Source of the DNA: a phage | Length of the DNA stretch: 64,000 nucleotides | Reading direction: 5' to 3' (one strand) | Assembly: GCA_024613925.1 (NCBI GenBank) | Contig: GCA_024613925.1_4713.1 | In this document: positions 4,600-56,758 of the stretch, in pieces | How positions within the stretch are numbered: the stretch's first letter is position 1 | How the letters are laid out: every line of letters begins with the position of its first letter | Program-made: the position numbers and the translations under genes | Notes under the pieces: generated by a model | The model's input: only the letters and a program-made list of their open reading frames with translations | Told to the model about the DNA's origin: nothing | The model's database searches: none

Positions 4600-4625
4600 T
4601 ACCACAAAGGTAATATAAGCGTGAA
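4600..4625 (-). promoter_or_regulatory. early-promoter-like motif (minus-strand TATATTACCTTTGTGG)
   Basis: One of four near-identical copies of ..TATATTACCT(A/T).G..TG preceded by an A/T tract; resembles recalled phiKZ early promoter consensus TATATTAC. Confidence 0.45.
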
Positions 4626-4640
4626 TAATTTTGGATTCCG

Positions 4641-9211: not shown

Positions 9212-9288
9212 TCCGTTCTCCTCAAGCTTTTTCATTTCATAGAGTGGTGGAAATTCGTAGAAAGTTACAAAAATAAAAAAGAATGGGC

Positions 9289-9319
9289 AGCCTCTCCCCA
9301 CCCGAAGGTAGGGAGAGGC
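9289..9319 (-). terminator. intrinsic terminator-like hairpin with cUUCGg loop and U-rich tail (minus strand)
   Basis: GCCTCTCCC..GGGAGAGGC inverted repeat; on minus strand loop contains CTTCGG and is followed by TTCTTTTTTATTTTT. Confidence 0.45.
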
Positions 9320-9330
9320 CGCAAATATAT

Positions 9331-9795: not shown

Positions 9796-9879
9796 TTTAC
9801 TATCCTCGGATTTCATTAGGATTTAATTTCCAATATAAGGACTATGTGATATGCCTTATACAGTCGATTGATGTTGTAC

Positions 9880-9905
9880 ATCACCTAAGTAATATAGCCG
9901 TGAAA
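9880..9905 (-). promoter_or_regulatory. early-promoter-like motif (minus-strand GGCTATATTACTTAGGTG)
   Basis: Second copy of conserved TATATTAC-containing ~25-nt motif, upstream of gene 9331..9795. Confidence 0.45.
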
Positions 9906-9914
9906 AATGTTGGA

Positions 9915-10712
9915 TTAACGTGTTCTCCTATCCCGATGCGTATACGACTGAAGACCGATGTCCATATGCGGTAACGTTAGCGTCTGCCAGATCTGTCGTG
10001 CGTAGCGATCAAGCGTATGATCGTCAGTAACACAATCGACGGGTTCGATGAGGTGAGTCGTATACTGGCTTTTCTCAGAGAAAGGTTCGAGGTTAGCTGT
10101 ATCTCCTAATCCGCTTTTCACCGTGAAGACAAGACGTGTGACTATCATCGCTTTATGTTGCTGTTCATTATAACGAAGGCTGCGGTATACTGCATAGCTC
10201 CCTCCTTTTAAGCTTCGGGTATAACGAAGGTCGGAGGTCGTCTCGGAAATCTGATACAGCATCCAATCCAACGTATCTCGCCAGTACGCATCATCCACAT
10301 CAGGAACCGTAATACCGTACCGCGTAGGCAGCAATTCTAAAAGCAATTTATAAAGTCCGCGACGCAAGCCATGCTCTTCTGTTTCCGACAAGCCGTTTCC
10401 AACGTAACGTGAAATACGTGTACGTAAATACGTACGGATGAACATATTCGCCATCAGTGTTTTCACTCTGCTACTGGTATCCTCAAAGCGATCAACGCTG
10501 AAACTCGTTTCAATCAACCGTCCATTAAAATACAATGCGGCAACATACATCGCGTTATTACTATCACGTTCAATGTTTAAACGGCCGCAGATATTGGCTG
10601 CGTCGTTCATGGTAAATTCTAATTTATCGTGTTCGATACGATAGATAATATCCTCTTGGGTTGCTAGGCTCGCAATGCGACGATAGCCCGGAGAAGTACG
10701 TTTTACACTCAT
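9915..10712 (-). CDS. hypothetical protein
   Basis: Track ORF 9915..10751 trimmed to ATG (MSVKRT..) with AGGA 5 nt upstream; the track start ATG lies inside the TTTATGCCG motif. Confidence 0.45.
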   Translation of the reverse strand: MSVKRTSPGYRRIASLATQEDIIYRIEHDKLEFTMNDAANICGRLNIERDSNNAMYVAALYFNGRLIETSFSVDRFEDTSSRVKTLMANMFIRTYLRTRISRYVGNGLSETEEHGLRRGLYKLLLELLPTRYGITVPDVDDAYWRDTLDWMLYQISETTSDLRYTRSLKGGSYAVYRSLRYNEQQHKAMIVTRLVFTVKSGLGDTANLEPFSEKSQYTTHLIEPVDCVTDDHTLDRYARQIWQTLTLPHMDIGLQSYTHRDRRTR

Positions 10713-11433: not shown

Positions 11434-11448
11434 TACAGGCGTCCTCCT

Positions 11449-11685
11449 TTAGCAATGGTTGTTAGTTGCTTCTATTTCGTCAAGATACGGTTCTACGTCA
11501 TCGCCCTCCACGAATTCGTTGAACCAACAGTCAATGGTAGAAATAACCGGCGACTGGTGTTCACATTTCTTAGATACCTTAAAAGGTACGTTATTATCCA
11601 TCATACCGAGTTCGGGTCGAAAACGCCCGAAATGTTTCGCAGTCCAAATATCTGGGACGATATGGTTGTTCATCGTAGTGTTCAG
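11449..11685 (-). CDS. RNA polymerase beta-prime N-terminal fragment (non-virion RNAP candidate), proposed exon 3
   Basis: Translation LNTTMNNHIVP.. resembles beta-prime segment (A)LMMSTNNILSP downstream of NADFDGD; in-frame stop 3 codons upstream of the track ATG and no need for own start if spliced to mini-exon; G of track ATG proposed as intron terminal G. Confidence 0.4.
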   Translation of the reverse strand: MNTTMNNHIVPDIWTAKHFGRFRPELGMMDNNVPFKVSKKCEHQSPVISTIDCWFNEFVEGDDVEPYLDEIEATNNHC

Positions 11686-12028
11686 CATGAGTCGCTACCT
11701 CATACCCGCAGCTTTACCTGCAGCTTCCGGTGTTACCGGAATGACCAGAATACATCTTATCCATATTCCAAATGGAACGTAGGACTTCCGCGCTGGATCT
11801 CGCTTGAGACCACGTATTCGTTGAACGTTCTCCTGAACGGAGCTTCGCTGCTGATCGAACATTGTCACGTACGGTAGGCGTCCCCGAAGGGATTGTCATT
11901 GAAGCCGCGTACATCCGCTACCTTGTTTCTACCTTATCGGTTCCTCTTACGAGGCGTAGCGGCCTTAGCCCTTCCCAGCAATTCACGGAATCCAAGCTCT
12001 TCCTTTCGGAAGGCAGGGCCTATGATTA
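11686..12028 (-). ncRNA. candidate group I intron B (second of tandem pair) in beta-prime gene
   Basis: Minus-strand elements in canonical order: P GAAUUGCUGGGAAGGG (~11966-11990), Q AUCAGCAGCGAAGC (~11846-11859), R GUUCAACGAAUACG (~11811-11827), S AAGAUGUAUUCUGG (~11743-11760); P/Q and R/S complementary (UUGCUG/CAGCAG; GAAUAC/GUAUUC); P9-like hairpin UCCGG-UAACA-CCGGA; 5' splice site pairing (P1) not found. Confidence 0.45.
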
Positions 12029-12041
12029 AGCGTCACCGTCG
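12029..12041 (-). CDS. proposed 13-nt mini-exon encoding (F)DGDA of the beta-prime catalytic NADFDGD motif
   Basis: Minus-strand CGACGGUGACGCU lies immediately after a G that follows the intron A S element; joined to exon 1 (..AAC GCA GAU UU) it reads N-A-D-F-D-G-D-A in frame; followed immediately by UAA. Confidence 0.4.
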
Positions 12042-12419
12042 CTGTTTATCGACTATATCTTCATCCTCGTTGCGAGGAGTCTCCCGTTTTGGTCTGTGTT
12101 TAACAGAGCCTACTCTACTCGACATCGCGTCTTTCGATAGTCTGTGAGCACACATCTTAACGAACATTCGTGGATTCCTAAACAGGTGAATGTTCTTGTT
12201 GAGATGCTTCGCTGCGGATTATTCCCGTCCTACCTCTTTTACCATATCCAGTTCATTACGCTGGCCCTCATCTGTGTCACCACGATGAGTTGGTGTGTAG
12301 TCCGATTACAGAAACTTCCCGTCAATTAGAGAGTTTTAACTATGTTCCTGTTACCAGAAACCAGATCCCGACGGTATCAATAAATCAACGTAAGTTATTG
12401 AATTTATTGAAAAAAACTG
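12042..12419 (-). ncRNA. candidate group I intron A in beta-prime gene, inserted within the NADF/DGD codons
   Basis: Exon ends in U; internal guide-like GAUCUG (~12361-12369) can pair with exon end CAGAUU including U-G wobble; P AAUUGACGGGAAG (~12315-12329), Q AAUCCGCAGCGAAGC (~12207-12223), R GCUCACAGACUAUCG (~12134-12149), S AAGAUAUAGUCGAU (~12049-12066) in order; terminal G at 12042; 3' region after S is unusually short (no obvious P9). Confidence 0.45.
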
Positions 12420-13675
12420 AAATCTGCGTTATAACCTTTGAGGATCATCACGCTTAACCCGATGGTGTTATCCTGCGGATCGCGTTTAACCTTGGTGATT
12501 TCAAGACATTGGTTACTGCTTCGGTCAAGTGATGGGTTTCGAACAAAACCACACACAATCCCATCGAACGGTGTATCAGCAATAAGCTCATCGTGCAGCT
12601 CGCTCATCATCGGATGATAATTACGGACATGTTCCGCAACGAACGCACGTGCTGCTCTCGGTGAATACCCACGATGGAATAGCTTGGATTGGATATGTTC
12701 TTTATTGGTTAAAGTAAATGGTGCGTATGGGAAATGCAGATGATAATAACGATGGTTCGCTGTTATCGAACTGATTACGGTACGCGTGGTGAATGGATGT
12801 AATGTACCTAATATGTTTTTACGTGTGATACCTTTCTTCTTACCGATGAACTCATCGAAAATCGCCGCATGGTATTGCAGCAGCTTCAATTGCACTTTCG
12901 CCATCCAGTTTTCTTTCTTTCTGGCGCTCAAAGGTGTTGTTGGATGATAGATGCTATTCAACGTACCGATAGCATCGATCGCACCTTCCATTTTGCTATC
13001 CGCATAACGACCGGTTGGCGTATTCTCGATAACGAACATCATGGCCGCAGGAAAGCTGATATACTGGCTGAAGAACTTATCACGATGGATACGGATGAAT
13101 TCTCGTAGTGTGTCAACTTTCTCCGTGTTCTTCGGTCCACGTAACGTCGGTCCTTTATACAAGATCTCCATGATGCGATCGAAGTTCTGTATAAAACTAT
13201 TTACGCCACGACGTATCCCGAATACATCGAATTGCTGCTCCAGATAGTTCTTGAGTTCGATGGGTCGTTTTACATTTGGACGGTAACTGGCATCAATGAG
13301 CCACGTCATCGTTTCAAAGCTTTTGATATTCAACTCGCTTGCCAGCACGAGATGGACCAACGGGTTAATGAACGCATCGATTCCTTCAGGAACGCGCGCC
13401 CAAACCGTCGAACGAATCTCTTGTTCTGCTGGGTAGGTTACAACCGTTTTACAGTTTGGACACACCGTGCCGAGCAGCTCACCACGATTGTAGAAACCAC
13501 AACCACATTGTGGTGTGATATCCAACGTATCGCTGGAGTAAACACGGGTGATAAAACTGTTTAATTTCTTCTTCTCTTCGACGACTTTTGTATCGTAATC
13601 GTTCAACAAAATCGGCGTAAAAGGAAGTTCTGCGAGCTGTCTATCGAAACTCACGATATCGAGCATGATGGCCAT
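12420..13675 (-). CDS. RNA polymerase beta-prime N-terminal fragment (non-virion RNAP candidate), exon 1
   Basis: Zn-ribbon CGCG..x13..CPNC like beta-prime N-terminus; GITRKNILGTLHPFTTRTVIS matches beta-prime [21 protein letters not shown]; unspliced ORF ends ...GYNADF-SFFQ-stop, i.e. stops inside the catalytic motif. Confidence 0.6.
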
Positions 13676-13717
13676 GGGGTATCTCCTACAAATGAAAAAG
13701 AACGTTAGGACGTATAA

Positions 13718-13741
13718 GGGAGGGAGGTTGCCCTCCCTCCC
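13718..13741 (-). terminator. hairpin GGGAGGGAGG-TTG-CCCTCCCTCCC downstream of chimallin candidate
   Basis: 10-bp perfect inverted repeat between stop of 13768..15663 and start of 12404..13675. Confidence 0.45.
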
Positions 13742-13767
13742 GTCAGATTACATCGAACGTTCTTCCA

Positions 13768-15663
13768 TTAGAACAGGTTGAATGCCCCACCCATGTTGTT
13801 ACCGCCAACATTCGGACGATCGCTACGTGCGTAGATGTTGCCGGAGATGTTACCCAGACCACGAGCACGTGCTGCCATGTTACCACGAACAGCGGTACCT
13901 GCCAGGTGCTGGATGTTCTCAGGACGGATGGTGAAGCCAGCATCAGCCGCAGCTTCGATCAGCGCCTGCAGTGCTAACGGATCGAAGTCGTAACGCATTG
14001 CCCAGCCGGTTTGTTCCCAGCTACCAGACAGAACACGATCAATGATTTCGTGACGAGCGACAACACGCTGAGACATCGTCATATCGGTACGGTCGAAGCT
14101 GTCTTCCCAAGCTTCTACGGTATCCGGGTTAGTGATGTTCATCATGTACAGATCGTCCATATCACGAATATCGTGACGGTGACCATCCTGGTGGTTGTAG
14201 TAACCCAGCGGGATACGGTTACCGGTAGCGTAGACCAGCGGTTGGCCGTATTGATATTTCTTGCTGAAGCAACCCAGGGTAGTATCATCGAAGGCACGGT
14301 AGAGTGCTTTGTAACCTTCGGAGATTTCTTGAACTTTACCGTCAACGTTGCCCGTAAAGATCTTCTCAGCCGCCGGGATCATACGCAGCAGCCAGCTATA
14401 CTCGCCTTCTTCCGGTACGTCGATAGAAATCAGCAGAGACGGATACAGAACCTGTTGCAGGAACTTGTAAATCTGCTCGTTGGTTTGCGTAGACAGATCC
14501 AGCGGTGCAGTCACTTCAGGATCCAGCACCATCGCCAGAGCACCTGGGTTATGCGGACCAATACCACGAGCCGCGTTGCTGATTAAAGACTGTGCCCATG
14601 CCATGCCGCTGTTCAGCGTAGCGATGGTACCAATCAGACCCAGCACGAAGCTGTTCGGTGTGAACGCATCCAGCTCCAGCGGGTAAACGCTGGTCATCAC
14701 GTAACGCGGCTGGTACTGTACAGTCGGCGGTACCGGATAGCCGTTAACCAGAACAGGGCCTTGGTTGAAGGTCGGGTTCTGCGGGCTGTAGGTCAGGTCA
14801 ATGTAACCGGTGGTGGCGACCAGACGCTGTTGACTATCGTAATCGCTCATCGCTTGACGGATGCGGTTAGAGATAGTTACAGTGATGTCAGAACGCACAG
14901 GGTTACCAACAATATCGCTGTCCTGCATACCGCTGGTGTTGTACTGAACGCTGCTGATTGGCTGATCGCTTGCCATCATGCCCAGGTTGAACTGCGGCAG
15001 ACCCAGTTTATCACCGAGACGGATTTCGATCGCGGTTTGGATTGCGTTATCTGCAGCAGACAGCAGGGTGGTTGCCAGATGCGCAGATTCAGCGGTGATT
15101 TCATTGGTCACCACAGCCAGACCAGCGATACGAACAGTACCGTTAGACTTACCGCCAATAGCTGAATACATTGCCGCCATGACTTCGTTGATGAACGTAC
15201 CGTTCAGGTTATCAACCCAGGTACGCGGTACCAGAATGTTACCATGCGGACCTTGTTCTTCACGACGCGGCAGCGGAGCCAGACCAGCAACCAGCGGCAG
15301 GACGTAACCGAAGAAGTGGTTATGATCACCAACTTTTGCACCGCTCATAACAACCAGGGTCGGATACGGTACGCTGTACTGGTTCGGGTCAACCGCAACA
15401 AAGATGAAGTCGTCTTTGAACTGGGTATCTTCCAGATATTTCTCCATCAGACGACGGAGATTCAGTACCTGCTCGGAGCCGGTATTACGGCTGATACGAC
15501 GGCTCAGTGTACGGTTGATCGTACGCATCGTATGAGTTACTTTAGGACGGTCGGCAAAATCTGCAGCGGTTTCCAGCGCCTCATCAGCACGTTGTGCGGT
15601 GCGGGTTTCAGCTGCACGAATTTCTACATTATCGTTACCGTTATTACGTACGTCTAAGCCCAT
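13768..15663 (-). CDS. chmA: candidate chimallin (phage nuclear shell protein, ChmA-like)
   Basis: 631 aa (the size recalled for chimallins); sits immediately upstream on the same strand of the beta-prime N-terminal gene, as phiKZ gp54-gp55; early-promoter motif and AAGAGGAA RBS upstream; assignment by size and synteny only, no alignment performed. Confidence 0.45.
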   Translation of the reverse strand: MGLDVRNNGNDNVEIRAAETRTAQRADEALETAADFADRPKVTHTMRTINRTLSRRISRNTGSEQVLNLRRLMEKYLEDTQFKDDFIFVAVDPNQYSVPYPTLVVMSGAKVGDHNHFFGYVLPLVAGLAPLPRREEQGPHGNILVPRTWVDNLNGTFINEVMAAMYSAIGGKSNGTVRIAGLAVVTNEITAESAHLATTLLSAADNAIQTAIEIRLGDKLGLPQFNLGMMASDQPISSVQYNTSGMQDSDIVGNPVRSDITVTISNRIRQAMSDYDSQQRLVATTGYIDLTYSPQNPTFNQGPVLVNGYPVPPTVQYQPRYVMTSVYPLELDAFTPNSFVLGLIGTIATLNSGMAWAQSLISNAARGIGPHNPGALAMVLDPEVTAPLDLSTQTNEQIYKFLQQVLYPSLLISIDVPEEGEYSWLLRMIPAAEKIFTGNVDGKVQEISEGYKALYRAFDDTTLGCFSKKYQYGQPLVYATGNRIPLGYYNHQDGHRHDIRDMDDLYMMNITNPDTVEAWEDSFDRTDMTMSQRVVARHEIIDRVLSGSWEQTGWAMRYDFDPLALQALIEAAADAGFTIRPENIQHLAGTAVRGNMAARARGLGNISGNIYARSDRPNVGGNNMGGAFNLF

Positions 15664-15727
15664 TTGGGATTCCTCTTTTCTTAAACTTTATTAAATGACG
15701 TCATTGAATCAGCTTCTACTCGCTCAT

Positions 15728-15752
15728 TCACCTAGGTAATATAACCCTGAAA
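15728..15752 (-). promoter_or_regulatory. early-promoter-like motif (minus-strand GGTTATATTACCTAGGTG) upstream of chimallin candidate
   Basis: Third copy of conserved motif, ~70-90 nt upstream of ATG at 15663; an ATGACGTCAT palindrome lies between motif and start. Confidence 0.45.
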
Positions 15753-15917
15753 TTTTTTTCAATATTGGTGTAACCACATTGAACGATATAAACCCCTAGG
15801 CGAACGCTGCCGAGAAGCAACATTCTTTCTACATATAATCAGGATATGTCTGTAAACTTTTACTTCTCTTATTGAGAGTAATGTCATATCCGTTTATTAC
15901 CTTCTTACGGAGTTCGT

Positions 15918-17012
15918 ATGTTTCGTGTTTTAAATAACCTCCCGCGAACATCATCGGGTGTGCAACCCGTCCCTCAGAAAGACTATCTAATACGCGAAGT
16001 TCAAAGAAACCTACAGACAATCCAGAACCACTATCAAGGTTTTACCTTCGCGGTTCAGAGCGATCACATCCTTGCGTTGCTGCTCGCACAGCTCCCTATG
16101 AGATACGACATCTCAGTACAAACTTACTACGACATGATTCTCGATCTTACCCCAGAATTGGGTAATCGTGTCAAGTTGACAACATCAAGATACGCGGGTA
16201 AGTTATTCGACGGTGCTTTCTATCCGGGATTGCACGAAGCTATTATCGCAACCGGTGAAAGTCGTCTTATTTCACGTGACATTCTTGACAACTGGCGTAA
16301 TTGGTCGCCGGTTAGAATCGTGACGCACCCGTACGCAAATCTTCGTTACATTCCTCTTCACCGAAAGCCGGTTGAAGAAGGACGAGGTTTTGCGGTCATT
16401 ATGGTTGATGTACCTTTATTAGCGCTACAGTATCGAATGTGGTCTTTGGTCATGGGTCATAACGTCGACGGTAAATGGGTGGTTAAAGAACCGGTTACAA
16501 GCTTCCTTGCGAGTTTTCCGTTGGTTAACGCATTATACTCACACAACGATGTTGTTATACGCAATCGTTGTTTATGGGTATCTCCGGCTAAGAATCCACT
16601 CAAATCACCCATTTACGTTAACGACCTTGATAACGTATTCAGCCAAGTCGTTCTGTCCGTACAGCATCATTTATTACGCAGAAGACGAAGCTACACCGAC
16701 ATGCTTAAACAGATACCGAGTTTATACGGGGATCAGTACCAAGCAACCCGAATGGGTTACACCGTCGATCTTCGACAAACACGATGGGCAAGGGATCTGG
16801 GTTGTCTGTCATTATGGCAACAACTCGTCACATTGCAAAACGTATCTGAAAGCGTCGGGTTCAGCAGTCAAGTCGATAATGACCTGTACCGTGCTGCCGA
16901 CCGGAGTCTAAAAGAAGGTAACTGGGAATCCTCTCCGTTACCTGGTGATTTAAGACGTGAAGTTATCGCACAGGTTGCCGACCTCTTAAAAATTCTTCCT
17001 GCTGGTGCATAA
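15918..17012 (+). CDS. hypothetical protein
   Basis: 364-aa ORF, GGAG 5-6 nt upstream of ATG; convergent with 17079..19232. Confidence 0.5.
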   Translation: MFRVLNNLPRTSSGVQPVPQKDYLIREVQRNLQTIQNHYQGFTFAVQSDHILALLLAQLPMRYDISVQTYYDMILDLTPELGNRVKLTTSRYAGKLFDGAFYPGLHEAIIATGESRLISRDILDNWRNWSPVRIVTHPYANLRYIPLHRKPVEEGRGFAVIMVDVPLLALQYRMWSLVMGHNVDGKWVVKEPVTSFLASFPLVNALYSHNDVVIRNRCLWVSPAKNPLKSPIYVNDLDNVFSQVVLSVQHHLLRRRRSYTDMLKQIPSLYGDQYQATRMGYTVDLRQTRWARDLGCLSLWQQLVTLQNVSESVGFSSQVDNDLYRAADRSLKEGNWESSPLPGDLRREVIAQVADLLKILPAGA

Positions 17013-17017
17013 TCACC

Positions 17018-17066
17018 TCCCTCTTCCCTCGCATCCTCCCAACCCGTAAGGGAAGGGAGGATGGGG
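17018..17066. terminator. GC-rich imperfect hairpin between convergent genes (bidirectional terminator candidate)
   Basis: CATCCTCCC..GGGAGGATG plus CTTCCCT/AGGGAAG complementarity seen in sequence. Confidence 0.4.
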
Positions 17067-17078
17067 TGGTGGATTATG

Positions 17079-19232
17079 TTACTCTGCGGTTTCTCGCTTC
17101 GGTAAATAACTTGCTGCGATGTCTTGGGCTAACAATGTATTGTTTTTATTCGAGATGAAAATACCGTAACTTTCCATTAACGCGTAATACGAACGAACGA
17201 GCGTAGAGATCAATCGACGAATATCCATACCTTGAATAAAGATATCAGGAAGCCCGGAGGCTTCGATCACCGGTAATGGTATCGTTAAGTTGCTTATCGT
17301 TTTCTTATCGTTACGTACAATCCAATCACGGAAACGTTGTTGTAACCCTTTATCCTCCCAGGAATCAATCCAATCGTTAAGAAGCGTTTTGTTCTTCGTC
17401 GCCAACGGCACACGAACCCCAACATAGGGTGGTTCCTGGCAATGGCCGTACGATTGAGCAAACACCTCTTCCCACATATCGTAAGACTGTTTCGTTACCG
17501 CAACATGTGGTTTCACTTTAACACGTGTTAAGAAATCAGGATCACCACGTTTCATGGACTCAACGATTTCGTTTTCTAACGAGATAATATCGTCAAGAAC
17601 CAATCGAATGCTGATCTTCTCATTACGTAACAGCTTATCCATGATACCGCACATCATGCGTTCAACACGTTTGACGATCATTTTTGGTGCTGACGCATCA
17701 CGCATAACCGGACCTTTCAATTCCAGCTTCGGTGGATTGATAGGAACCCCTTCACGCATGGTCATGTAACCGTAATAGTTTTTACCCATCGAGGTTAACG
17801 ACAGAATCAAGAACATATATTCGTTCTTCATTTCCATCACGTACATATGCTCTTTCGCTACACCGATATTACCAGAACACATCGCCATCAGATGAACCGT
17901 AATCTGCGTAACCAGATAGATAAGCGTGTTTGCTAAGCGCGTCGAAACTGGATTGATCTCCATATTTCCAAATCGCCACTGAACCCACTCCTGGCAGGTA
18001 AACACCGTCGAGTCGGTATCAGACAACACGCCCACTTCACGGATTGCCGACGGAAAAGCATAAACGCCAGCCGGTTGGTTCTCGGTACGCCAGAACGCCA
18101 TAATCAAGTCAGCATAACTTTGGATGCGTTGCAGCATTAATTTTGTTGTTGCTGCGGTAAGACGATAACCAAGCTCATTTCCTTTTTCTAGCGCTACGTA
18201 AATCGCTTCCCCATTCAAGAACTCCGTGCATTGTGCTGTAATCCAAGCGACCGTGTTGTTATCCATGGAAGCAATAATGGCTTTAGCCTCTTCCATCGTT
18301 TCAACAGGTTCGGATGCCAGCTCACACAACGAGTCAAGAAAATCTCGAACAAATTCAGGATTAAGCTCACGTAACGAGTACAGGTTATTGCTGTACATGT
18401 AGCAGGCGCGTTCCAACGGCGTTAAACCGGTAATTAACTCCCGGATAGTCAGTTCTTTCTCTGGGTCGAAAGTATACCGATGTAAGCATTTCGATACGTT
18501 AGCCCAAACCTCTTCCGGCGTAGGGTAATGCAGTTTGTATTTTACCATTACCTGCTCAATGGCTTTACGATCGCTGTTACGGACGATGCTTACGATGTTT
18601 TCAATTGCGATATCACAATCGTAATAATGGAAATTGCCCGCAAGGAAGCGTTCGTTGTTCGCATTGGCTGAACCTGAAGCACAGCGACATGTTGTCGTTA
18701 GACTCGGATGCGCAATCGGATTATAAAAAGGGTTGAACTTGGACGCCTGGGTTCCTGACAAACTGTTGTTGTCTAACTTGGTGTTGGTTTGTCGTTTATC
18801 GTGTAGCTCCGCTTCGTCTTTACGTCCGTGTGCTTGCGCTATCGACATTTGTTTCTTTTGTTTCTTACGCAACTTACCGTTTTCAACCGCAAAGTCGCTT
18901 AGCACACTGGAACGTGTTTCACGTGGATAACAGTTAGCCCACACCGGCGTGATAATTAAATTATTTTCTTTAATATCGTTGAAGTATTGGCTGAACTTGA
19001 TGACTTCTTTTTCTCGATTTCCTTCGGTACGCTGCGTTAGTACAAGGCAGTCGGGATCAACCATCCCGTATTTTCCACCAGGACGAACCGTTTCAAGAAC
19101 AAACTGCAACGCTTCCTGCTGAGATATCCCACGCATGCGCATTAAGAACAGGGTATAATCCTGTACCGCTTCTTTGGTCATATCCAACGTACGACCATAT
19201 CCGTTTTCATCGTAAAAGAACGGATTTTCCAT
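17079..19232 (-). CDS. hypothetical protein (717 aa)
   Basis: Long ORF; GGAGG 4-5 nt upstream of ATG; function not recognised. Confidence 0.55.
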   Translation of the reverse strand: MENPFFYDENGYGRTLDMTKEAVQDYTLFLMRMRGISQQEALQFVLETVRPGGKYGMVDPDCLVLTQRTEGNREKEVIKFSQYFNDIKENNLIITPVWANCYPRETRSSVLSDFAVENGKLRKKQKKQMSIAQAHGRKDEAELHDKRQTNTKLDNNSLSGTQASKFNPFYNPIAHPSLTTTCRCASGSANANNERFLAGNFHYYDCDIAIENIVSIVRNSDRKAIEQVMVKYKLHYPTPEEVWANVSKCLHRYTFDPEKELTIRELITGLTPLERACYMYSNNLYSLRELNPEFVRDFLDSLCELASEPVETMEEAKAIIASMDNNTVAWITAQCTEFLNGEAIYVALEKGNELGYRLTAATTKLMLQRIQSYADLIMAFWRTENQPAGVYAFPSAIREVGVLSDTDSTVFTCQEWVQWRFGNMEINPVSTRLANTLIYLVTQITVHLMAMCSGNIGVAKEHMYVMEMKNEYMFLILSLTSMGKNYYGYMTMREGVPINPPKLELKGPVMRDASAPKMIVKRVERMMCGIMDKLLRNEKISIRLVLDDIISLENEIVESMKRGDPDFLTRVKVKPHVAVTKQSYDMWEEVFAQSYGHCQEPPYVGVRVPLATKNKTLLNDWIDSWEDKGLQQRFRDWIVRNDKKTISNLTIPLPVIEASGLPDIFIQGMDIRRLISTLVRSYYALMESYGIFISNKNNTLLAQDIAASYLPKRETAE

Positions 19233-19307
19233 AAATCCTCCAAAAGTTATTTAGTCTGTCTACATCATCTCGTATATCTGTTAAAAAAGAAGGACGGCAT
19301 AAAAAAG

Positions 19308-19335
19308 AACCGATCCAGCCGAAGCCAGATCGGTT
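19308..19335 (-). terminator. intrinsic terminator (minus strand): hairpin with CUUCGG loop followed by CTTTTTTATGCCG
   Basis: AACCGATC..GATCGGTT stem; T6 run follows on minus strand; ~200 nt downstream of gene 19533..19946 and ~75 nt upstream of start of 17079..19232. Confidence 0.5.
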
Positions 19336-19532
19336 AAAAAAGGATAATAACTGACAGAAAGATATCGATGATGTTCGTGAAACAAGATCTTCTCTCGTGC
19401 ACAATGATGCTAGATCAGAGGGAGGTTGTAACACGAGAGGCGATTCGCCAAAGAAGGAATAAAAAACACGAATCTATCTTATTTCACTGATGGCACTAAC
19501 CACTCAAAATATATAGTACTGTATGTAAAAGT

Positions 19533-19946
19533 TTACTGATTAATCAAGTCGTTAGCAACAATCTTGGTGTAACCTGCCTGATTAAGAATTTGATTAATTT
19601 TCGTCACGTCGGTCGCATCCTCAATAACGATGCTGGGTTTATAGATCAGCGTCTTGGTAACGACGATTGTACTCTCCTTAATCCAAGGAATCCCTAGAAT
19701 CACATACTCGCCATCAGCTGTGATGACCTCGACGTAATTGTATTTCGTCGGATCGTTCGGTACACTGGACGGGAGCCGGGAATAAATCTGTTGATGAATA
19801 GCGTCTACATCACGGCCGTTGCGCACAGCCGTACGATAGTTGTACACGGCACTAATTTCTACTCCGTTGAAGTTAACCCCAAGTTCTGGGGCGTACACAT
19901 CAAAACTCACAACAGAGCCAATCTTTTCTAAATCAGAAGCTGGCAT
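19533..19946 (-). CDS. hypothetical protein
   Basis: 137-aa ORF; AAGGA 8 nt upstream of ATG. Confidence 0.5.
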   Translation of the reverse strand: MPASDLEKIGSVVSFDVYAPELGVNFNGVEISAVYNYRTAVRNGRDVDAIHQQIYSRLPSSVPNDPTKYNYVEVITADGEYVILGIPWIKESTIVVTKTLIYKPSIVIEDATDVTKINQILNQAGYTKIVANDLINQ

Positions 19947-19957
19947 AATAGCATCCT

Positions 19958-30412: not shown

Positions 30413-30523
30413 TGCATTGCCTTCCGCGAGTGTAATCAGGAAGGTAATGTAGGTTTATTTTAATCTCCATTTCGCGATGATATGACAGTCTTTATTACGT
30501 TTACCATCTGAGGGAGCATGCTC

Positions 30524-44624: not shown

Positions 44625-44739
44625 GTTAATACTCCAATTAGTTTTTTCGATCGATCAAAAGGATAAAATCAGAAGATTCTTTCTTCATAGGGAAAACACA
44701 AGTCGGTTAAGGTTTACTTCTTAAACTCCTTGCGTTCTA

Positions 44740-44762
44740 TCAGTTAGGTAATATAGACCTCA
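44740..44762 (-). promoter_or_regulatory. early-promoter-like motif (minus-strand GTCTATATTACCTAACTG)
   Basis: Fourth copy of conserved motif; overlaps stop codon of upstream gene 44760..45560. Confidence 0.45.
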
Positions 44763-45560
44763 ACTTTTTTCCAATAATGCCGCAACGTTCCGCGCGAAAC
44801 GAATTACCTTGTAATTGCGGGTCTGTTTGATATCTTCTTCCCCATCACTGTCACCTTCTGACGGATCTTCCCACATGAAGTCTTGTTCGTCCGCTTTCTG
44901 TAAGTAGCGGTATAACTGCACCATGCTGCGTGCGGTCGGAGAGATAGCGCGAAGCTCATCCAATTCTTCATCCGTCAACAGAACGTGCGATGAACGCAGC
45001 GGCTCCATTGTCGTATTACACAACAGACGAATCAGCAGATCGACGCACGGAATAACAGAACCTGGCGATGCGATTTCTGGATGTAACGTATAACCCCAAT
45101 ATACGGTGTTAAAATACGTCAAAACAGCAGGTAGTGACGGATGTTCCATCGCACGGCCAATTTGTTGTCTTACGATAGATGCACGATCGTTCAACACATC
45201 GAAAGTAATCTGCTGCGGTTCCATAACCGCAAGTGAAATACCGTACGCGTCAGCCACGCCCAGGATTTCATGAAGGGTCGAACGTTCTTCTTCGGCGGAT
45301 ATTGTCCCGATTGCTTTACGCCCTGCAAGGTCAATCAGCATCGGTGAAACAGCTTCTTTAACCGCATTAAAAGAAGCCTGGTAAGCGTGTTTGTGAATAT
45401 ACAGTGTCCACGCTAATGCGCGCTCAGCCGCATGAAGCAGATCGACATAAGACAGTTCTTGATGGCATGGGCCATACACACTCACAGCAAGCTTGGTGGC
45501 TTTCTCAGAGGCTTGCATAATAACATCTGGTGATTTAGGCATATCGCGTTCTTCTTGCAT
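44760..45560 (-). CDS. hypothetical protein
   Basis: 266-aa ORF; hairpin+TTTATGCCG element ~100 nt upstream. Confidence 0.5.
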   Translation of the reverse strand: MQEERDMPKSPDVIMQASEKATKLAVSVYGPCHQELSYVDLLHAAERALAWTLYIHKHAYQASFNAVKEAVSPMLIDLAGRKAIGTISAEEERSTLHEILGVADAYGISLAVMEPQQITFDVLNDRASIVRQQIGRAMEHPSLPAVLTYFNTVYWGYTLHPEIASPGSVIPCVDLLIRLLCNTTMEPLRSSHVLLTDEELDELRAISPTARSMVQLYRYLQKADEQDFMWEDPSEGDSDGEEDIKQTRNYKVIRFARNVAALLEKS

Positions 45561-47464: not shown

Positions 47465-48175
47465 TCACCCCCTCAGAATCGCTTCTGTTTCGCTGATCGT
47501 ATCCGCAGGATAAACCAAACTACTATCGATTGCGTTATTCACGTAACCACCCATTAAGTTGGTGATGGTGTTTGTACCACTATCGATAATGTTTCGTAAT
47601 CCGATATCGATGGCTTTTAAGGTGCTGCGTTCCTCATCCGAAAGCAGACGCCACGCTCGACGACGATCGTTGGGGTCACGTGTGGTGATAGACGCCAGAA
47701 CAGAATAGATGCTGCTGTCTGCGTTCAATTTAACGCCCGCCAATTTCGCTGACGTATAGAGCAGCTGATATTTTTCTTTTTCGGTGTACCACCATGGCAC
47801 CTTACCGAGCGTATAGATCTCGTTATACATCAGCCATGGGAAAGAGTTTCGCATCACGACATCGGTTGACACCAACACCGTGTCGCCGGGAAGAAACACA
47901 AATTCATAAAACGGCTGACCATCCATGGTAATCTCACGGATGTCAGACGGGTCGATATGGAGCTGGGTCAATGCGTGGCTGACACCATACTGACCATCGG
48001 GAAGAATAATCGGGCAGCACGCACAAACCCGGTTCTCACTCCCGATGATAGATAAACCCAATCCCTCGTAACGGACGGGTGTCAGAATCGAACACCCGCC
48101 ACGAGTAACAACAGATTTATCTTCTTGTATGTCCCAGTCCGCAAGCACCGCAGCACCGTTGCGGACAAGCGCCAT
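47465..48175 (-). CDS. hypothetical protein
   Basis: 236-aa ORF, 1-nt gap to neighbours (operon-like). Confidence 0.45.
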   Translation of the reverse strand: MALVRNGAAVLADWDIQEDKSVVTRGGCSILTPVRYEGLGLSIIGSENRVCACCPIILPDGQYGVSHALTQLHIDPSDIREITMDGQPFYEFVFLPGDTVLVSTDVVMRNSFPWLMYNEIYTLGKVPWWYTEKEKYQLLYTSAKLAGVKLNADSSIYSVLASITTRDPNDRRRAWRLLSDEERSTLKAIDIGLRNIIDSGTNTITNLMGGYVNNAIDSSLVYPADTISETEAILRG

Positions 48176-50033: not shown

Positions 50034-51143
50034 TTATTTAGCGTCGTTAAAGTAAATATCAACAGCTCGTTCCGTTGCGTAGAGGAGACCAAGATTCACA
50101 GTCCCAACCACTTCCGGTGAACCGATGATACGGTTAGCGATACTGGTGCCACTGAAGATAGCATCAAGGGTGTGCCCGTCTTCGGTTTTGTTCACACCAT
50201 GACCCACGGAAGAGACAACGGATTTCGCTTGTGCTGCGAAGGTACCTTTATCACCCATCCCCGCACCAAGGTCGTAACGCATGAAAATACGGATAGCGAT
50301 CTGGTTCTCGCCTAACGGATTGCCGTCTATTCTCACGTTACTATTGTTGATACGCCCTGTTGCTGCCTCGTTGAGTTTCAGTTCCTTAACGCGTTTAGCT
50401 CGCGCTTTATCCGCTTCACCGACGAGCGCCGCCATGGTTTCACTCATATCCTCAATCTGAGCACGGTACAGTACATCGATCTGTACAACTTCACCATGAA
50501 CGTCAGCACGTGGGTTATACTGACTCATACGACGTAATGCTTCAACGGCTTCCTGACTCTCATCACTCAGATCGGTTGCAATCGGTTCTTCCAGTGTTGC
50601 AAGAATCGTTCGTGGTTCAACGTGATCACCGATTTTCACAAGACCACGAATATTGAGATGGGCGTCAACGATGAGCGTACGGCTCTTAATCGATGGTGTT
50701 ACGAGACGATCGGCAAGATTGTCGAAGATATACGAACTGTCCTCGTGCGTCTCTGGAATATCCAGAATACCGACAAGAGACAGCACACCTGCGCGCCAAA
50801 CAACCTGGCCTGGGTTCCACCAATCGCGTTTGAAATAAAGACGATGGAAAACCACCACATCCTGATCCTTAACGCGATCCCCGACTTTATAATCGGTAAT
50901 GAGATCGTGAGGATAATACTTACCTGGCCCTTTCCCGATTATCGTACCGAGCTGGAAAACCTCTTCCCCTAACTCTGGATCGTCGTATTGTATCGTAAGC
51001 GCAGTTTTGGTGACCTTCTTAACAACACCATCGCCTTGGGCGGCGGCCGCGAAGAGTTTACCAACACGATGCGCGATAACAGTCTCACCGCCGGTGCGCC
51101 ACGGTTGTACATCGTAACCCTCAGCGGCAATCATGCGGTTGTG
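50034..51143 (-). CDS. RNA polymerase beta subunit (virion RNAP candidate), proposed exon 2
   Basis: Track ORF 50034..51164 starts at TTG with no RBS; from HNRMIAAEG it resembles beta ANRALMGANMQRQ, then TGGETVIAHRVGKLFAAAAQGDGVVKKV vs [26 protein letters not shown], and GDKGTFAAQAKSVVS vs GDKMAGRHGNKGVIS (E. coli beta recalled). Confidence 0.5.
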   Translation of the reverse strand, partial: HNRMIAAEGYDVQPWRTGGETVIAHRVGKLFAAAAQGDGVVKKVTKTALTIQYDDPELGEEVFQLGTIIGKGPGKYYPHDLITDYKVGDRVKDQDVVVFHRLYFKRDWWNPGQVVWRAGVLSLVGILDIPETHEDSSYIFDNLADRLVTPSIKSRTLIVDAHLNIRGLVKIGDHVEPRTILATLEEPIATDLSDESQEAVEALRRMSQYNPRADVHGEVVQIDVLYRAQIEDMSETMAALVGEADKARAKRVKELKLNEAATGRINNSNVRIDGNPLGENQIAIRIFMRYDLGAGMGDKGTFAAQAKSVVSSVGHGVNKTEDGHTLDAIFSGTSIANRIIGSPEVVGTVNLGLLYATERAVDIYFNDAK

Positions 51144-51656
51144 CTGTATACCTATAAATACCAATCTCTTGGGCGAATTTAGTTCTTATTCAACATAATC
51201 GTACTATTACCAGAATAAGACTGAGATTAGATTGTTCAGATAAGGTCGTTAATCTTATCCCGGAGGCGACGATAGGCACATCACCTCCCGCTTGCGCTCT
51301 CACGCAAGAGCAGACTATATCACATCTCGTTTCAAACGGTGCTTCTTCAGCACCTCAACGAGAGTTCACTTCTTCCCAGCGCATCCAGCGCCATTCTCTT
51401 ATCCAAGGAGAATGCCTCACTCGAGGGGTACAGGGGGATGAATCCCTTAGTCGTTGAACCTTTACCTTAGAACGCTTCACAGCGATCCTTAGGTACTTGG
51501 CTGCGGATTGTCCTTAAGCTATTATCTGTTTTTATAACCATACCGTCTTTCTTTTCAGAATCCGTTTTGGTCGATAACAGCGATGGATGTCTTCGCAATT
51601 CAGTGAATCTCATCTACATGTCGCCACATAGACGGACCCTGCTATTAAAAGCGTTA
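51144..51656 (-). ncRNA. candidate group I intron in RNAP beta gene, inserted at conserved HDD/ANR motif
   Basis: 513 nt with no ORF; minus-strand P AAUUGCGAAGACAUCC (~51583-51602), Q AAUCCGCAGCC (~51495-51513), R GUUCAACGACUAAGG (~51436-51466), S GUGAUAUAGUCUG (~51305-51326) in order; UUGCG/CGCAG and GACUA/UAGUC complementary; exon 1 ends in U followed by UAA; G precedes exon 2; splice keeps frame (..DRDD-HNRM..); P1 pairing not identified. Confidence 0.5.
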
Positions 51657-54600
51657 ATCATCTCTATCAGCAGCAGGTACTGCAAGCGCCGACGTACTCA
51701 TTATTGACGAGCTACCATCCGTTTTCTCGTCGTAAGGTTTCGTTTCACCGTATACAGACACAATGTTTGCGTTAGGTGCGAGGTAAGCAGAAATACCTAC
51801 GTCCCCACTATCCTTCGTACCTTCGGATACAACACCAATGTCCGACTTGTCGTATTCACGATCGCGTGCGCGTCGAAGCGATGTCTTTGAACGACCCCCG
51901 ATACCGGTCATCGTCGCTTCTTCACCCTGCTTGATATCCAGCATCGGGTTGGTTTCATCGATTACGATGGAAGCGCTGTCGTCGAGAATCTGGTTCCAGA
52001 CGCTTACCGGACTGATTGAGATTTTCTGGCGGTTTCCTTGACTGCTGTTCTCATTCTGACGAATAGCGCCAACCAGATCCTTATACACCAACTCAGCGAA
52101 CTTATCGTACGTTTTAAAACGTTGGTAGTTCACATCGTTCGTGTTAGGTGCCCAATCATCCAGAAGCAGTTCGACGGCACGCAGTAACAACATGGCGAAA
52201 TCGGTAGGTTCTCCCATGTTCTGCAGCAACGTACGGCTTACCGGATCAACGAAAAGACGCTCCATGAGTTCAAGTTCGCGTAAATGGCGAACCTTAAGTC
52301 CAGCCCCATCGACAACGTTAAAATAGATATCTCGATTGTCAAAAGCGCCGCGAGCGTAACCAATGTAGTTACGGTATTCGTTAAACCCACCCAGCAACAA
52401 CGTCGTCATGCGATCGTCTTTACTGAAGATCAGACTTTCGTCGTCAAAGCTCACCGCGAATTCATCGGGTGCTAACCCCATACGAGAGCCGCGAGGTACC
52501 GTACGATAGTTCGCTTTAAGATGTTCTAATAACGGGGTAAGCCCACCCAGATAACTTAGAACAACACCGACCGGAATACGTACACCCATGAATTCAAGAT
52601 CGGCGGCTTCGATCGGCATCTTAGCCGCATTGATACCGAAGAAATCAGGGAACGTCCCTACAGGTGTTGGTGTTTGTCCTGACTGACAGATATAGAGCTG
52701 ATTGCGTTTATCGATTGCTAAGAATTCACCCAGCGTGTTACGCGCAAACGTCAGGAGTCCTTCGGCTAACTGTTCGTTGAACCGATCTTCCCCAATGAAC
52801 TCCGGCAATGTCTTTGTATCGAGACGTATATCCCAATCAGCAAATTGGATTTGGGTATAGTTGCGTGCAAGCACAGCGAAGTAATACGGAACTTTGACAG
52901 CTGGATCAAAGACGTTACCACGTTTCAACGTGGTTAAGGGTGAGGACTTATCGTAATACATCGCCGTAAGTTGACGTGTTAGCCAACGACCCGCATTATT
53001 AACGACACGCTCTGAACGTTTAACAAACACCTTACCGTAGGCGGTACTCAACGCAACTTCAGATGACGATACCTTTCTAATAGGTTTATCAACACGTTGT
53101 TTACGCATCCGGTATTTGATGCCGTTAACGACATAAATGCCGTCCTTACGAACCTTCGGCAACATCACCGGGAACGTGGTCGGGACACCGCCTACAGGAG
53201 CCAGTTTAATCGTGATGACTTGATAATCCCCCATCACGTCAACAACATCTTCAACTTTATATCCCGTGACAGGGTAACCTGCCTGCTGTACCGCAACGAC
53301 GGCAGCTGCGATGTCCTTTTGCATTACGTGTTCAACGTAATGTTTATCCCACACCGCAAGCGTCGATTTACACAGGCTCTTATCGACGATAACATCCGCT
53401 TCCGGCATAACCTTTGCAGGCGCTAATTTTGCGGCTTTTGGTTTAACTTCAACATACTCAGCAAGTGTTAATCCAGAACCGTCGGGTGCTTCGATTTCAT
53501 GGATGGCGTCAGCATTACGCATCGCTGCTTTATATTGGACACCGCTTAACTGACCCGCATCCGCCAGATCGCTCGCGCGTACCAACACCGCATCCGATAA
53601 CGACTGAATATATTCGCCATGCGTTTTCGGTAACGTTGCCGCGTCAAAGACATCAACCTTTTCTTCTTCGGTATCGTCGGTAACGACTTCGAAGAGATCG
53701 TCGGTAATGTCCTGATCTTCATCGGGCTGGAAATCTGGTTGTACTTCTACCCCGGGTACTTCACGGACATCTTCGAACGAGCGTTCTACAATGGCGTTCC
53801 ACGCATCGGCATCATCGTCTTCATCCGACCCACCGACCAACTCCGCTTCTAACTCGTCGGGATCAAGAACGGTAGCGAGATCCTCACCGTTAGGAAGCAC
53901 GACGTCGCGATCATCATACTCCGCATCCGGGCTGTCCGCAAGAATATCTCGCTCTTGACGAAGAACCTGTTCCTCTTCTTGTTTCTGTTCTTCTTCATTC
54001 GCGCTCTGCGACCACAGACGTGTTACCGCCATCATCCAACGACGTTGGAAGGTTTCAAGTGTCGTTTTATCGAGTTCTTCCCCTTCCTTCACAAGTCCGG
54101 TACGCCATTCTTCCAGCAGGCCGAGATTCAGCGTAAAGAAGTACACACCGTCTGTAAATACGATGTTAAGCTTATCCAGCGTGGCTCTGTCTAACGAAGC
54201 CATCGTGCTGTTCTCACGATCGGTTCCCAACCAGCGGAAGAAGTCAAAGAACGACAGCTCCTCCGGTGTGGCGAAATTCATGAGGTTATTACGGGTCGGT
54301 GCCTGTTGCGTGGTACGCATCAACGAAATCTTCGGCAATGTTGACGGTATACGGAACAACAAAAAGTGTTGGCGATCGCTTTGCTGTGCGATTTCGTTGG
54401 CTTTCGACCAAATTGTTTTACGTACGTTGAACCATTCATCATACCAACGGGTGAGCGTTGGACGATAAATGTACATGTGGTTAAGATGCGCGTAGTTAGC
54501 AACGATCTGAGCGTTGATGTTTTTCTCCACCGTGCTTAGATCGGTAACCAAACGAAAACGACGATGTGATGCACGATAATCCAATTTCGCTCGTGGGAGT

Positions 54601-54863
54601 TGGAATCGTTGATCACGTCGAGGTGCACCCTGTTTGGTTGCGAGATCATCAGCAAACGAAATCCATAGTTGAGCACTTTCTTTACTCAGCATGTATTCGT
54701 TTTCTGGAGGACCTATCAATGAAGGATCCGTTGCGGTGTAATGATAGACAGCATAACGCGGCAGCTGCAATAGCTGCACTAAACGTAATCTTGGTGATAG
54801 TAACTCTTGGTAGCGTCTGACACCAAACTGTCGGTAGTAATCAAGGTATTTAAGTTTTGCCAT
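51657..54863 (-). CDS. RNA polymerase beta subunit (virion RNAP candidate), exon 1
   Basis: 1069 aa; C-terminal DETNPMLDIKQGEEATMTGIGGRS resembles beta Rif-region [24 protein letters not shown]; ends ..SALAVPAADRDD like ..ASLIPFLEHDD; AGLKVRHLRELELMERL resembles VGLVRVERAVKERL; GGAG RBS; long acidic insert. Confidence 0.5.
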
Positions 54864-54866
54864 GGG

Positions 54867-56513
54867 TTAGGCTCCACGAGGTCCCGTTAAGTTGCGTAAT
54901 AGGAACGCAACCGTATCGTAACCAATATCAATGTTGAATTTATTTTTACCACTTACCCAGAAAGCTCGCTTCTTGTGCGAGTTGGTAATTTCGTCAATAG
55001 CTTCCATGGAATAAAGAACGTTAACCGAGACCGTATCACCGTCGAAGTCCGCCCCGAGGCCAGCTAGAAACACCTGGCCGACTTGGGTCGTTTCTACAAA
55101 TGACGCTTTCAATGACCAATCTGGGTATTCCCATGCCATATACCGATCGCCTTCTAACGGTTGCCAATCGACACCGAGTTCTCTTCTTGGCTTCGTGTTA
55201 ACTGTCGTCCGCACATAGCAGGTTAACGGTATAACTGATTGCATTCCCGATACTGGATAACGTGTCACCATCGCACCGAGTTTATTCCAAAGATGATAAC
55301 CGCTCAGATAAACCAATTCGCAGTATGTAACCGGATGAACATTAGCGCCAGGTTTGTTCAGCATCTCTGGGGGTATTTCACTCATGCCACGGAATAACCG
55401 AAACGAATCGTTGTTCACATAGACGAGGCAAAGATAACGCCCATTAACCATGATAGGTTCGTTACGCACACCAGGATCGCTTAGCGTGTTCAGTAAACGT
55501 TCGATACCGTCCCACGTTGTAAAGTCATCGATGGTATCTGGGTCTAACGTGACGCGTTCACGTTCCATCGTTTCGGTATCGATAAGCTCAGCTTCAGTAA
55601 CATCACGAACAAATATTTCCTGCAAAATCCCCGTACGTAATGCGTGCTGTGTGATAGGAAGAGCAGCCTTGCTCATCTGATATAGACCAAGTTGTACTGA
55701 TGTACACGAAGTCTGGTTCGGTGAGCCGAGAACCTCTGTAGTTGGGATGACAGCCGAAATAACGTTACGGGTTGAGTTCCAAACGCGACGTGAACCGAAC
55801 TTCCCTTGGAAGATCCCTTTCTTACCTTGGAACATATCCAACAACAAAGCGTAGATATCGTTGAATGTTCTCTGTAAGCTCCAGCGCTGGCCGTCGTAAA
55901 CGGGATCGGAATAATCTTTTAATCCATCAGGGACGGTGTTAGAAATTGCAAGGAAACGACGATACAACTCCGTGATTTCTTGCTCGCTTTCATACCCGCC
56001 TTCTTTTACTTCTATTTCACGTAAGCCTGCAGGTAATACCAGTAAGTGACGGGTCATCGCTTTGAACATGTTCTCTTCGACAACTTTAATTCGTAGCTCT
56101 CGTTGAGCTGAACCCGTTGAAACGAACTTGATATCCGCGACGTGTTGTGCAAAGAACCCGTATCCTGTTTGTCCTGTTAACGCATCAGACGCAACGAAGT
56201 CGCGTTGTTCAGGATCCCAACGAGCATACGCCTTTCCCGACATGATATCACCATAGAGGTGTTTTAGTCGAATGAGGCGGTCGTAAATGACAGGGTGCAG
56301 GATTTCAACCTTGCATTCAATCACCGCAAATCGACGGTCTCGATCTTCACTACCTGCACTACCAAAGATGGTGTAAGAATAGAAACCATCATCGTGGAAA
56401 TTACCGGTGCTTGGGTCACGAATGCTCATGCTCGTGATCTTGGGGAGAAAACGTAACTGCTGTTTATCGAGGTGTAAAATACTAATGTTAAACGGCTCTC
56501 TGACTTTAGCCAT
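54867..56513 (-). CDS. RNA polymerase beta-prime N-terminal fragment (virion RNAP candidate)
   Basis: Contains intact catalytic motif GADFDGDTVSV (NADFDGD family) and GKKGIFQGKFGSRRVWNSTRNVISAVIP matching [24 protein letters not shown]; track ORF trimmed to ATG (MAKVRE..) with GGAG 8 nt upstream; adjacent and divergent to giant lysozyme-domain gene as phiKZ gp180/gp181. Confidence 0.6.
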   Translation of the reverse strand: MAKVREPFNISILHLDKQQLRFLPKITSMSIRDPSTGNFHDDGFYSYTIFGSAGSEDRDRRFAVIECKVEILHPVIYDRLIRLKHLYGDIMSGKAYARWDPEQRDFVASDALTGQTGYGFFAQHVADIKFVSTGSAQRELRIKVVEENMFKAMTRHLLVLPAGLREIEVKEGGYESEQEITELYRRFLAISNTVPDGLKDYSDPVYDGQRWSLQRTFNDIYALLLDMFQGKKGIFQGKFGSRRVWNSTRNVISAVIPTTEVLGSPNQTSCTSVQLGLYQMSKAALPITQHALRTGILQEIFVRDVTEAELIDTETMERERVTLDPDTIDDFTTWDGIERLLNTLSDPGVRNEPIMVNGRYLCLVYVNNDSFRLFRGMSEIPPEMLNKPGANVHPVTYCELVYLSGYHLWNKLGAMVTRYPVSGMQSVIPLTCYVRTTVNTKPRRELGVDWQPLEGDRYMAWEYPDWSLKASFVETTQVGQVFLAGLGADFDGDTVSVNVLYSMEAIDEITNSHKKRAFWVSGKNKFNIDIGYDTVAFLLRNLTGPRGA

Positions 56514-56758
56514 GGAGACACTCCTCTTTACCACCACCGGCTGCGGCGGTATCATCTGAACACACGAGAGACGTAATGGGTGATGGCGTCACCCATCGCT
56601 TCCTTGCCTGATGCCAGGAAGTTATTAGGTTACGTGCCTGCTTGATAAAATCAAGCAGGCGATGTGTGAAGTTACGCTTCAACATTATCAATGCCGAAGG
56701 TAAGCTTCGTGCATCACGTTCCAACGTAACATGGGAACGTATCGAACTGGAGGTATAC

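Follow-up and report, generated by a model that had tools for sequence, protein, structure and literature searches.

Does the minus strand of this phage DNA carry early promoters that are read by an RNA polymerase packaged in the virion? The question comes from an A/T-rich octamer, TATATTAC, which an earlier note on the same 64,000-nt stretch (the window, as we call the whole of the DNA analysed) had placed in four minus-strand copies, one of them ahead of a candidate gene for chimallin. The note took the octamer to be the early promoter consensus of phage phiKZ and proposed that the genes behind it depend on the virion RNA polymerase (vRNAP). Our analyses favor this reading strongly. At a probability of roughly 0.88, the elements of the window are early promoters of a virion-packaged multisubunit RNA polymerase, present as four strong copies and one weak copy.

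The window aligned over its full length with Escherichia phage vB_EcoM_Goslar (Goslar 156175-222751); identity was 93-97%, and the two differ by four indels. A megablast search with 13700-17100 likewise returned vB_EcoM_Goslar, at 97.2% identity. Performing PHROG searches, we found that chimallin and subunits of both the vRNAP and the non-virion RNA polymerase (nvRNAP) are encoded in the window. Because of the Goslar identity and the PHROG matches to the nuclear shell protein and to RNAP beta-like subunits, we assign the source, on sequence grounds, to a Goslar-like nucleus-forming jumbo phage of E. coli (Chimalliviridae). The chimallin candidate (13768..15663, minus strand) proved correct: it matches phrog_4795, 'nuclear shell protein', with E=1.8e-54 and is 97.5% identical to Goslar gp246. 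Directly downstream of this gene (chmA) lies the first exon of a gp247-like nvRNAP beta'-like subunit gene (12404..13675, minus strand; phrog_2987, E=2.3e-117, profile 1-419 of 478). A group I intron follows the exon at 12042-12367 (minus strand), with a score of 44.6 bits, below the Rfam threshold.

We also checked whether the polymerase in question is encoded here. The vRNAP genes occupy 50034..56555 on the minus strand, with a gp205-like gene at 54867-56555 and a gp207-like gene in two exons (51654-54863 and 50034-51164); their PHROG matches are phrog_2986 (E=8e-178) and phrog_3148 (positions 2-1050 and 1055-1420). A gp210-like gene at 47465..48175 (minus strand) matches phrog_2926, 'virion structural protein' (E=3.7e-56). 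The Goslar vRNAP has five subunits in the virion, gp78, gp196, gp205, gp207 and gp210, and gp205, gp207 and gp210 were detected in virions by mass spectrometry (10.64898/2026.04.21.720040). Homologues of these last three are encoded in the window. The PHROG matches in the window and the Goslar homologues in virions together point to a virion-packaged multisubunit RNAP. The content of introns and homing endonucleases differs from Goslar at 51291-51658 (minus strand), 12042-12367 (minus strand), 12043/12046 and 55046-55200. The group I intron at 51291-51658 (56.2 bits) splits the gp207-like vRNAP gene of the window, and Goslar has no intron there. A Goslar intron with its HNH gene gp206 is absent from the window, as is the HNH gene gp186, while the intron of the nvRNAP beta' gene that hosts gp186 in Goslar is still there.

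Searching the window for the octamer, we found exactly four copies of TATATTAC, all on the minus strand, at 4610-4617, 9889-9896, 15736-15743 and 44748-44755, which are the places given in the earlier note. The octamer alone is not significant, since shuffled windows held 1.9 copies on average and 12 of 100 shuffles reached at least four. The aligned copies, however, share an element of about 40 nt, in which an A/T tract is followed by a TTTCAC(G)G-like block, the core TA(T/C)ATTAC and a CYT..GTGA block. The A/T-rich tract that the note had described precedes the core at all four sites, and the conservation extends over ~30-40 nt. We built a 40-nt matrix from the sites of the assembled full Goslar genome (~33 bits of information). 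It scored the four window sites at 41-52 bits, with the next best match at 17.4 bits and a maximum of 16.3 bits in 20 shuffled windows. The extended motif is significant, unlike the bare octamer. The shorter patterns proposed before describe it in part. A degenerate consensus fits two copies exactly (9882-9898 and 15729-15745) and misses one position in each of the other two, and a 15-mer put forward as the common element is exact at 15729-15743 and differs at 1-2 positions in the other copies.

Each of the four strong sites is followed by a minus-strand gene with a Shine-Dalgarno-like sequence ahead of its ATG. The chmA element (15726..15765, core 15743-15736; ATATTGAAAAAAATTTCAGGGT-TATATTAC-CTAGGTGAAT) is identical in Goslar and stands 72 nt from the ATG at 15663, and chmA is the first gene of its unit. 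The element of the gp182-like gene (9331-9795) lies at 9879..9918 (core 9896-9889; TTAATCCAACATTTTTCACGGC-TATATTAC-TTAGGTGATG), 93 nt from the ATG. It is the best-scoring of the window sites (52 bits) and departs from Goslar by a single G/C exchange, at a position that is not conserved in the motif. At 4600..4639 (core 4617-4610) the element precedes a gp175-like gene (2966-4552), followed by gp174- and gp173-like genes, with a gap of 57 nt, and at 44738..44777 (core 44755-44748) it precedes a gp214-like gene (44145-44624) with a gap of 123 nt. Because the measured gaps are 57, 93, 72 and 123 nt, the earlier claim of sites 55-130 nt upstream of start codons is upheld. All four copies listed in the note are real; a fifth, diverged copy at 30444-30451 (element 30434..30473, minus strand; GAAATGGAGATTAAAATAAACC-TACATTAC-CTTCCTGATT) was overlooked. 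This copy reads TACATTAC-CTTCCTGA, has an A/T-rich upstream region without the TTTCACGG block, and lies 58 nt from the ATG (30385) of a gp225-like gene, whose start codon was checked. It is the match that scored 17.4 bits against the shuffle maximum of 16.3, and it corresponds to Goslar 187632. Although borderline on sequence alone, it is probably the promoter of the gp225-to-gp243 early block. Thus, the A/T-rich core is present in the window as four exact copies and one TACATTAC copy. In Pfam searches with the genes downstream of the promoters, the one match was DUF488-N3a on 43628-44041.

Two other candidate elements in the window were also considered. The sequence TTTATTAC, found ahead of plus-strand genes (15893, 30491, 39901), was dropped as a second promoter class because its copies across Goslar lie mostly inside coding sequence and have no common context. 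The spacer between the gp227- and gp228-like genes (28633-28712, minus strand) is A/T-rich and replaced with respect to Goslar, at 78 nt vs 20 nt. It comes after two terminator-like hairpins and carries aatagagattaa..TTTATTAC, resembling the aatggagattaa..TACATTAC of the fifth site. The spacer may be a degenerate internal promoter, since the Goslar read density does not fall across it.

A genome-wide motif search, proposed earlier as a check, was run on Goslar. It returned 12 strong sites and one weak site. Every one of them is on the minus strand, with a start codon of that strand 31-211 nt farther downstream. The 12 strong sites score 41-52 bits; TATATTAC is the core of eight and TACATTAC that of four, and everything else remains at or below 18 bits. 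The promoter-bearing intergenic regions differ between Goslar and the window by 1-3 substitutions each (four regions) and are otherwise identical; across the four sites, the sole substitution within a motif is that of the 9889 site, at the variable position of TTA[G/C]GTG. Searching IMG/VR for diverged Goslar relatives, for phylogenetic footprinting, we recovered only genomes 97-99% identical. Two further IMG/VR contigs that matched the extended pattern were chance matches without homology. In the literature that we searched, early and late gene sets of Goslar are described and no description of its early promoters was found, and a full-text search for TATATTAC alone returned unrelated papers only.

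We then asked whether the genes behind the sites are expressed early, using published expression data from Goslar infection. Knockdown of ChmA arrests the infection at the early (EPI) vesicle, where tagged vRNAP colocalises with the DNA, and the transcriptome of the arrested cells matches 5-20 min of wild-type infection (Armbruster et al., 10.1101/2023.09.20.558163). Since the arrest comes before nucleus formation, only the virion RNA polymerase is together with the DNA. We took per-gene read counts and log2 fold changes from Sup. Table 2 of that study; these data come from Goslar rather than from the window phage and are apparently gene-level and possibly unstranded. The knockdown log2 fold changes are bimodal: no retained gene is below -1.3, and no lost gene is above -2.4. 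Read in the order of minus-strand transcription, the retained genes fall into nine blocks, and a motif site lies directly ahead of the first gene in nine of nine. The blocks are gp004 to gp001 (Goslar site 2560), gp021 to gp014 (15060), gp040 to gp037 (43259), gp047 to gp044 (49725), gp075 to gp070 (86698), gp159 to gp094 (142793), gp225 through gp243, gp244-247 and on to gp162 (187632), gp214 to gp216 (201937) and gp200 to gp201 (226688). Eight of the heads are strong sites and one, 187632, is the weak site. For randomly placed sites, nine such coincidences have a probability of about 8e-14. The four remaining strong sites lie inside blocks, at rises in relative expression (gp105, gp246, gp182, gp175). 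The proposal that these are virion-RNAP-dependent early genes is thus supported indirectly, in that every retained Goslar block starts at a motif site.

The Goslar data also show a step up in knockdown read density across each of the five sites of the window, from 1.4-fold to more than 40-fold. At the 44748 site the density rises about 40-fold, from 0.04 reads/nt in the late gene gp213 to 1.60 in gp214. The 30444 site marks another late-to-early boundary, with 0.01 in gp224 and 0.82 in gp225. At the 15736 site the values are 0.20 (gp244/245) and 1.36 (gp246), at the 4610 site 0.49 (gp176) and 1.03 (gp175), and at the 9889 site there is a small step from 0.72 to 1.00 (gp182). Goslar gp182 has the highest knockdown/control ratio of its region. 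Its one-gene early unit is closed in the window by an intrinsic terminator with a 16-bp stem and a T run (9277..9322, minus strand), across which the Goslar density falls 5.6-fold, from 1.00 to 0.18 reads/nt. The motif leaves part of the profile unexplained, because relative expression also rises at Goslar gp183 and gp236, both after terminators and without a motif.

Three details of the Goslar annotation and data touch these sites. The 'TSS sequence' given for chmA has its first nucleotide 91 nt upstream of the ATG (10.1101/2023.09.20.558163, Extended Data Fig. 4). This is 11 nt upstream of the chmA octamer, which would fall inside the transcript if -91 were the true 5′ end. The figure of 91 may be a display window only, because the next gene is given the same number, and the word 'promoter' has zero occurrences in that paper. 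Secondly, the 49725 site lies inside an annotated 62-aa ORF, gp047 (49584-49772). The annotation may be wrong, as the ORF starts upstream of the predicted transcript start. Finally, a gp245-like gene (15918-17012) and a gp233-like gene (24667-25509) lie on the plus strand, embedded in minus-strand early blocks, and Goslar gp245 and gp233 have 'early' read counts resembling those of their minus-strand neighbors. If the library was unstranded, these counts could be antisense read-through.

The same data bear on whether the non-virion polymerase could use the sites. That they are middle-class promoters of the nvRNAP, or are read by both polymerases, we hold to be improbable. It is true that phiKZ gp054 has early and middle start sites and that the genes after the sites are still expressed at 30 min in control cells. 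However, the downstream units stay near normal when the nucleus cannot form and the nvRNAP-dependent program is lost. The element is unlike the phiKZ motifs of the middle class (TACT and, near -22, an A-repeat) and of the late class (TATG at the start), and it is absent from the late blocks of Goslar.

Comparison with other phages of the family again points to early promoters of the vRNAP. The octamer is indeed the phiKZ early promoter consensus, as the earlier note had proposed: the phiKZ promoter is given as TATATTAC, and that of 201phi2-1 as TTAWTAVAA_HYWTTTRARR_BTATATTACDWHDGTG (PMC7058600 Table 2). In this family, early promoters consist of an AT-rich element around position -10 and a T-rich tract that lies beyond -19 on the upstream side (PMC8244752, PMC11512511), and reviews and transcript-mapping papers hold that those of phiKZ-like phages are read by the virion RNAP. 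For phiKZ gp054 (chimallin), the early motif is reported at the primary start site. We compared the regions upstream of chmA in eight distant relatives, whose ChmA is only ~24% identical. An octamer with a preceding A/T tract is present in seven of the eight, as exact TATATTAC in phiKZ, Eowyn, RAY and pEa_SNUABM_37 and as a one-mismatch variant in PhiPA3, Noxifer and RP12; RTH11 has only TATATTAT, farther upstream. The chmA site of Klebsiella phage Eowyn, TATATTACTTAGGTGATG, is the same as the 9889 site of the window along a stretch of 18 nt. Between the octamer and the start codon of chimallin lie exactly 72 nt in phiKZ and likewise in the window phage (15664-15735 in the window), although the two leaders have no sequence similarity. 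In each of the eight relatives that we inspected, as in the window, a gene for an RNAP beta' subunit comes after chmA.

We further asked whether the early transcripts begin with a structured leader. Among the 12 predicted Goslar early transcripts, seven have a hairpin starting in or just after the conserved GTGA, and the early leaders of Goslar have a mean MFE of -8.4 kcal/mol against -6.0 kcal/mol for random 40-mers (P ~0.01). In the window itself the idea of a 5′ hairpin is weakly supported. Against dinucleotide shuffles of the minus-strand leaders (4565-4609, 15691-15735 and 30399-30443 among them), one of five sites has a z value below -2 (4610, z -2.5), and the chmA leader has -1.7.

These hairpins, together with the long identical flanks at some sites (the same 30 nt flank Goslar 2560 and 166062), could also suit a conserved site at operon starts that is not a promoter, such as a binding site for an injected protein, a signal for RNA processing or stability, or the remnant of a duplicated cassette. 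Such a site is less probable still than use by the nvRNAP: at most sites the flanks have nothing in common beyond ~40 nt, early promoters that were defined by experiment in relatives match the motif, and it is at the sites that read density sets in or rises stepwise. Least probable of all is that E. coli RNA polymerase reads the elements as host sigma-70 promoters, for although TATATT as a -10 hexamer is one position off TATAAT and the upstream A/T tract could resemble an UP element, no -35-like hexamer stands at 16-18 nt and a sigma-70 consensus scan reported none of the five window sites, the conserved AC after TATATT and the downstream GTGA are not read by sigma-70, the same element occurs in relatives that infect Pseudomonas, Erwinia and Klebsiella, infection of the phiKZ type is independent of host RNAP according to the literature, the injected DNA is shut in a vesicle together with the vRNAP, and sigma-70-like matches are depleted (20 vs 32.4 expected from shuffled sequence in 1-20000 and 6 vs 16.2 in 40000-52000). 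This depletion fits a genome that does not rely on the host RNA polymerase.

Returning to promoters of the virion polymerase, we propose the following mechanism. The vRNAP would be injected with the DNA and would recognise the element of about 40 bp, in which TA(T/C)ATTAC may act as an extended -10-like element and CYT..GTGA would surround the start point. If phiKZ and 201phi2-1 are a guide, the first transcribed nucleotide would lie ~6-8 nt past the C that ends the octamer, in GTGA or close to it, and transcription would run leftward on the minus strand into the first-expressed genes. The 15736 unit would thereby deliver chimallin and one subunit of the non-virion RNAP. The 9889 unit would yield a single small gp182-like protein and end at the strong terminator, while the 4610 unit would cover the gp175-173-like genes and continue toward further non-virion RNAP genes outside the window. 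From the 44748 unit, gp214-216-like proteins would be made, and from the 30444 unit the gp225-243-like block, PhuZ included. In this mechanism, the start site, the recognition by the vRNAP rather than by another factor and the subunit that reads the DNA are inferred.

A wider scheme can be drawn from the same sites, and we regard it as doubtful. In it, 13 promoters alone would drive the vesicle-stage program of the Goslar type (58% of the genome, or ~145 genes, transcribed leftward in units of up to ~30-40 kb), the 5′ hairpin would label early mRNAs, for instance to stabilise them or to let them out of the early infection vesicle, and the choice between TATATTAC and TACATTAC or weak variants would set strength or timing.

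Goslar is the E. coli model for nucleus-forming phages, and the early promoter of ~40 nt with its list of sites accounts for every early block and marks the probable transcription starts of the vesicle stage. With the element, a ready cassette is at hand to express transgenes or anti-defence markers early in phages of the Goslar type; the phiKZ consensus has already been used to express a reporter early from the phage genome. The promoter specificity of the vRNAP appears to have survived changes of host and a very deep divergence of the proteins. These results leave the accepted view of the phage family as it is; they are useful for work on Goslar and will not surprise a specialist.

How does the element compare with known systems? 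Coliphage N4 (PMC4496689) follows the same logic, in that an injected polymerase reads a few dedicated early promoters. The N4 promoters, however, are DNA hairpins read by a single-subunit enzyme, whereas the enzyme here is of the multisubunit beta/beta' type. We looked for an N4-type hairpin (5-7 bp with a 3-nt loop) and rejected it: only a 4-bp TCAC/GTGA dyad spans the core, with no covariation across 12 sites. With the sigma-70 -10 hexamer (TATAAT) the core shares its A/T-rich composition and, probably, a place ~10 nt upstream of the start point, but the present element has no -35 partner and is conserved at other flanking positions. The vRNAP has no known sigma homologue.

Within the family, the 201phi2-1 pattern WTTTRARR_BTATATTACDWHDGTG aligns nearly position for position with aaaTTTCAGGGT-TATATTAC-CTAGGTG of the window. 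In that phage, only six early starts were recovered by experiment. 201phi2-1, OBP, EL and N1M2, for which early promoters have been predicted or mapped (PMC7058600 Table 2; PMC11512511), have no DNA similarity to the window, and ChmA is at ~24% identity. Sites are scarcer in the Goslar type than in phiKZ, with 13 over 237 kb vs 28-32 over 280 kb; the phiKZ sites also carry a T-rich tract upstream (Ceyssens 2014 via PMC7598289; Wicke 2021, PMC8244752). Five of the 13 Goslar-type sites have TACATTAC, unlike the phiKZ consensus TATATTAC, and the extra blocks of the Goslar type (TTTCACGG upstream and CYT..GTGA downstream) are absent from the bare phiKZ consensus. The element is more distinct from its background than in phiKZ, because the Goslar-type genome has 47% G+C. 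The two phages have in common the octamer itself, the A/T tract ahead of it, its orientation toward early operons and its place before the chimallin gene, and both package a multisubunit RNAP in the virion. The element is therefore not of a new kind; it is most probably a phiKZ-type early promoter, as expected for this phage family.
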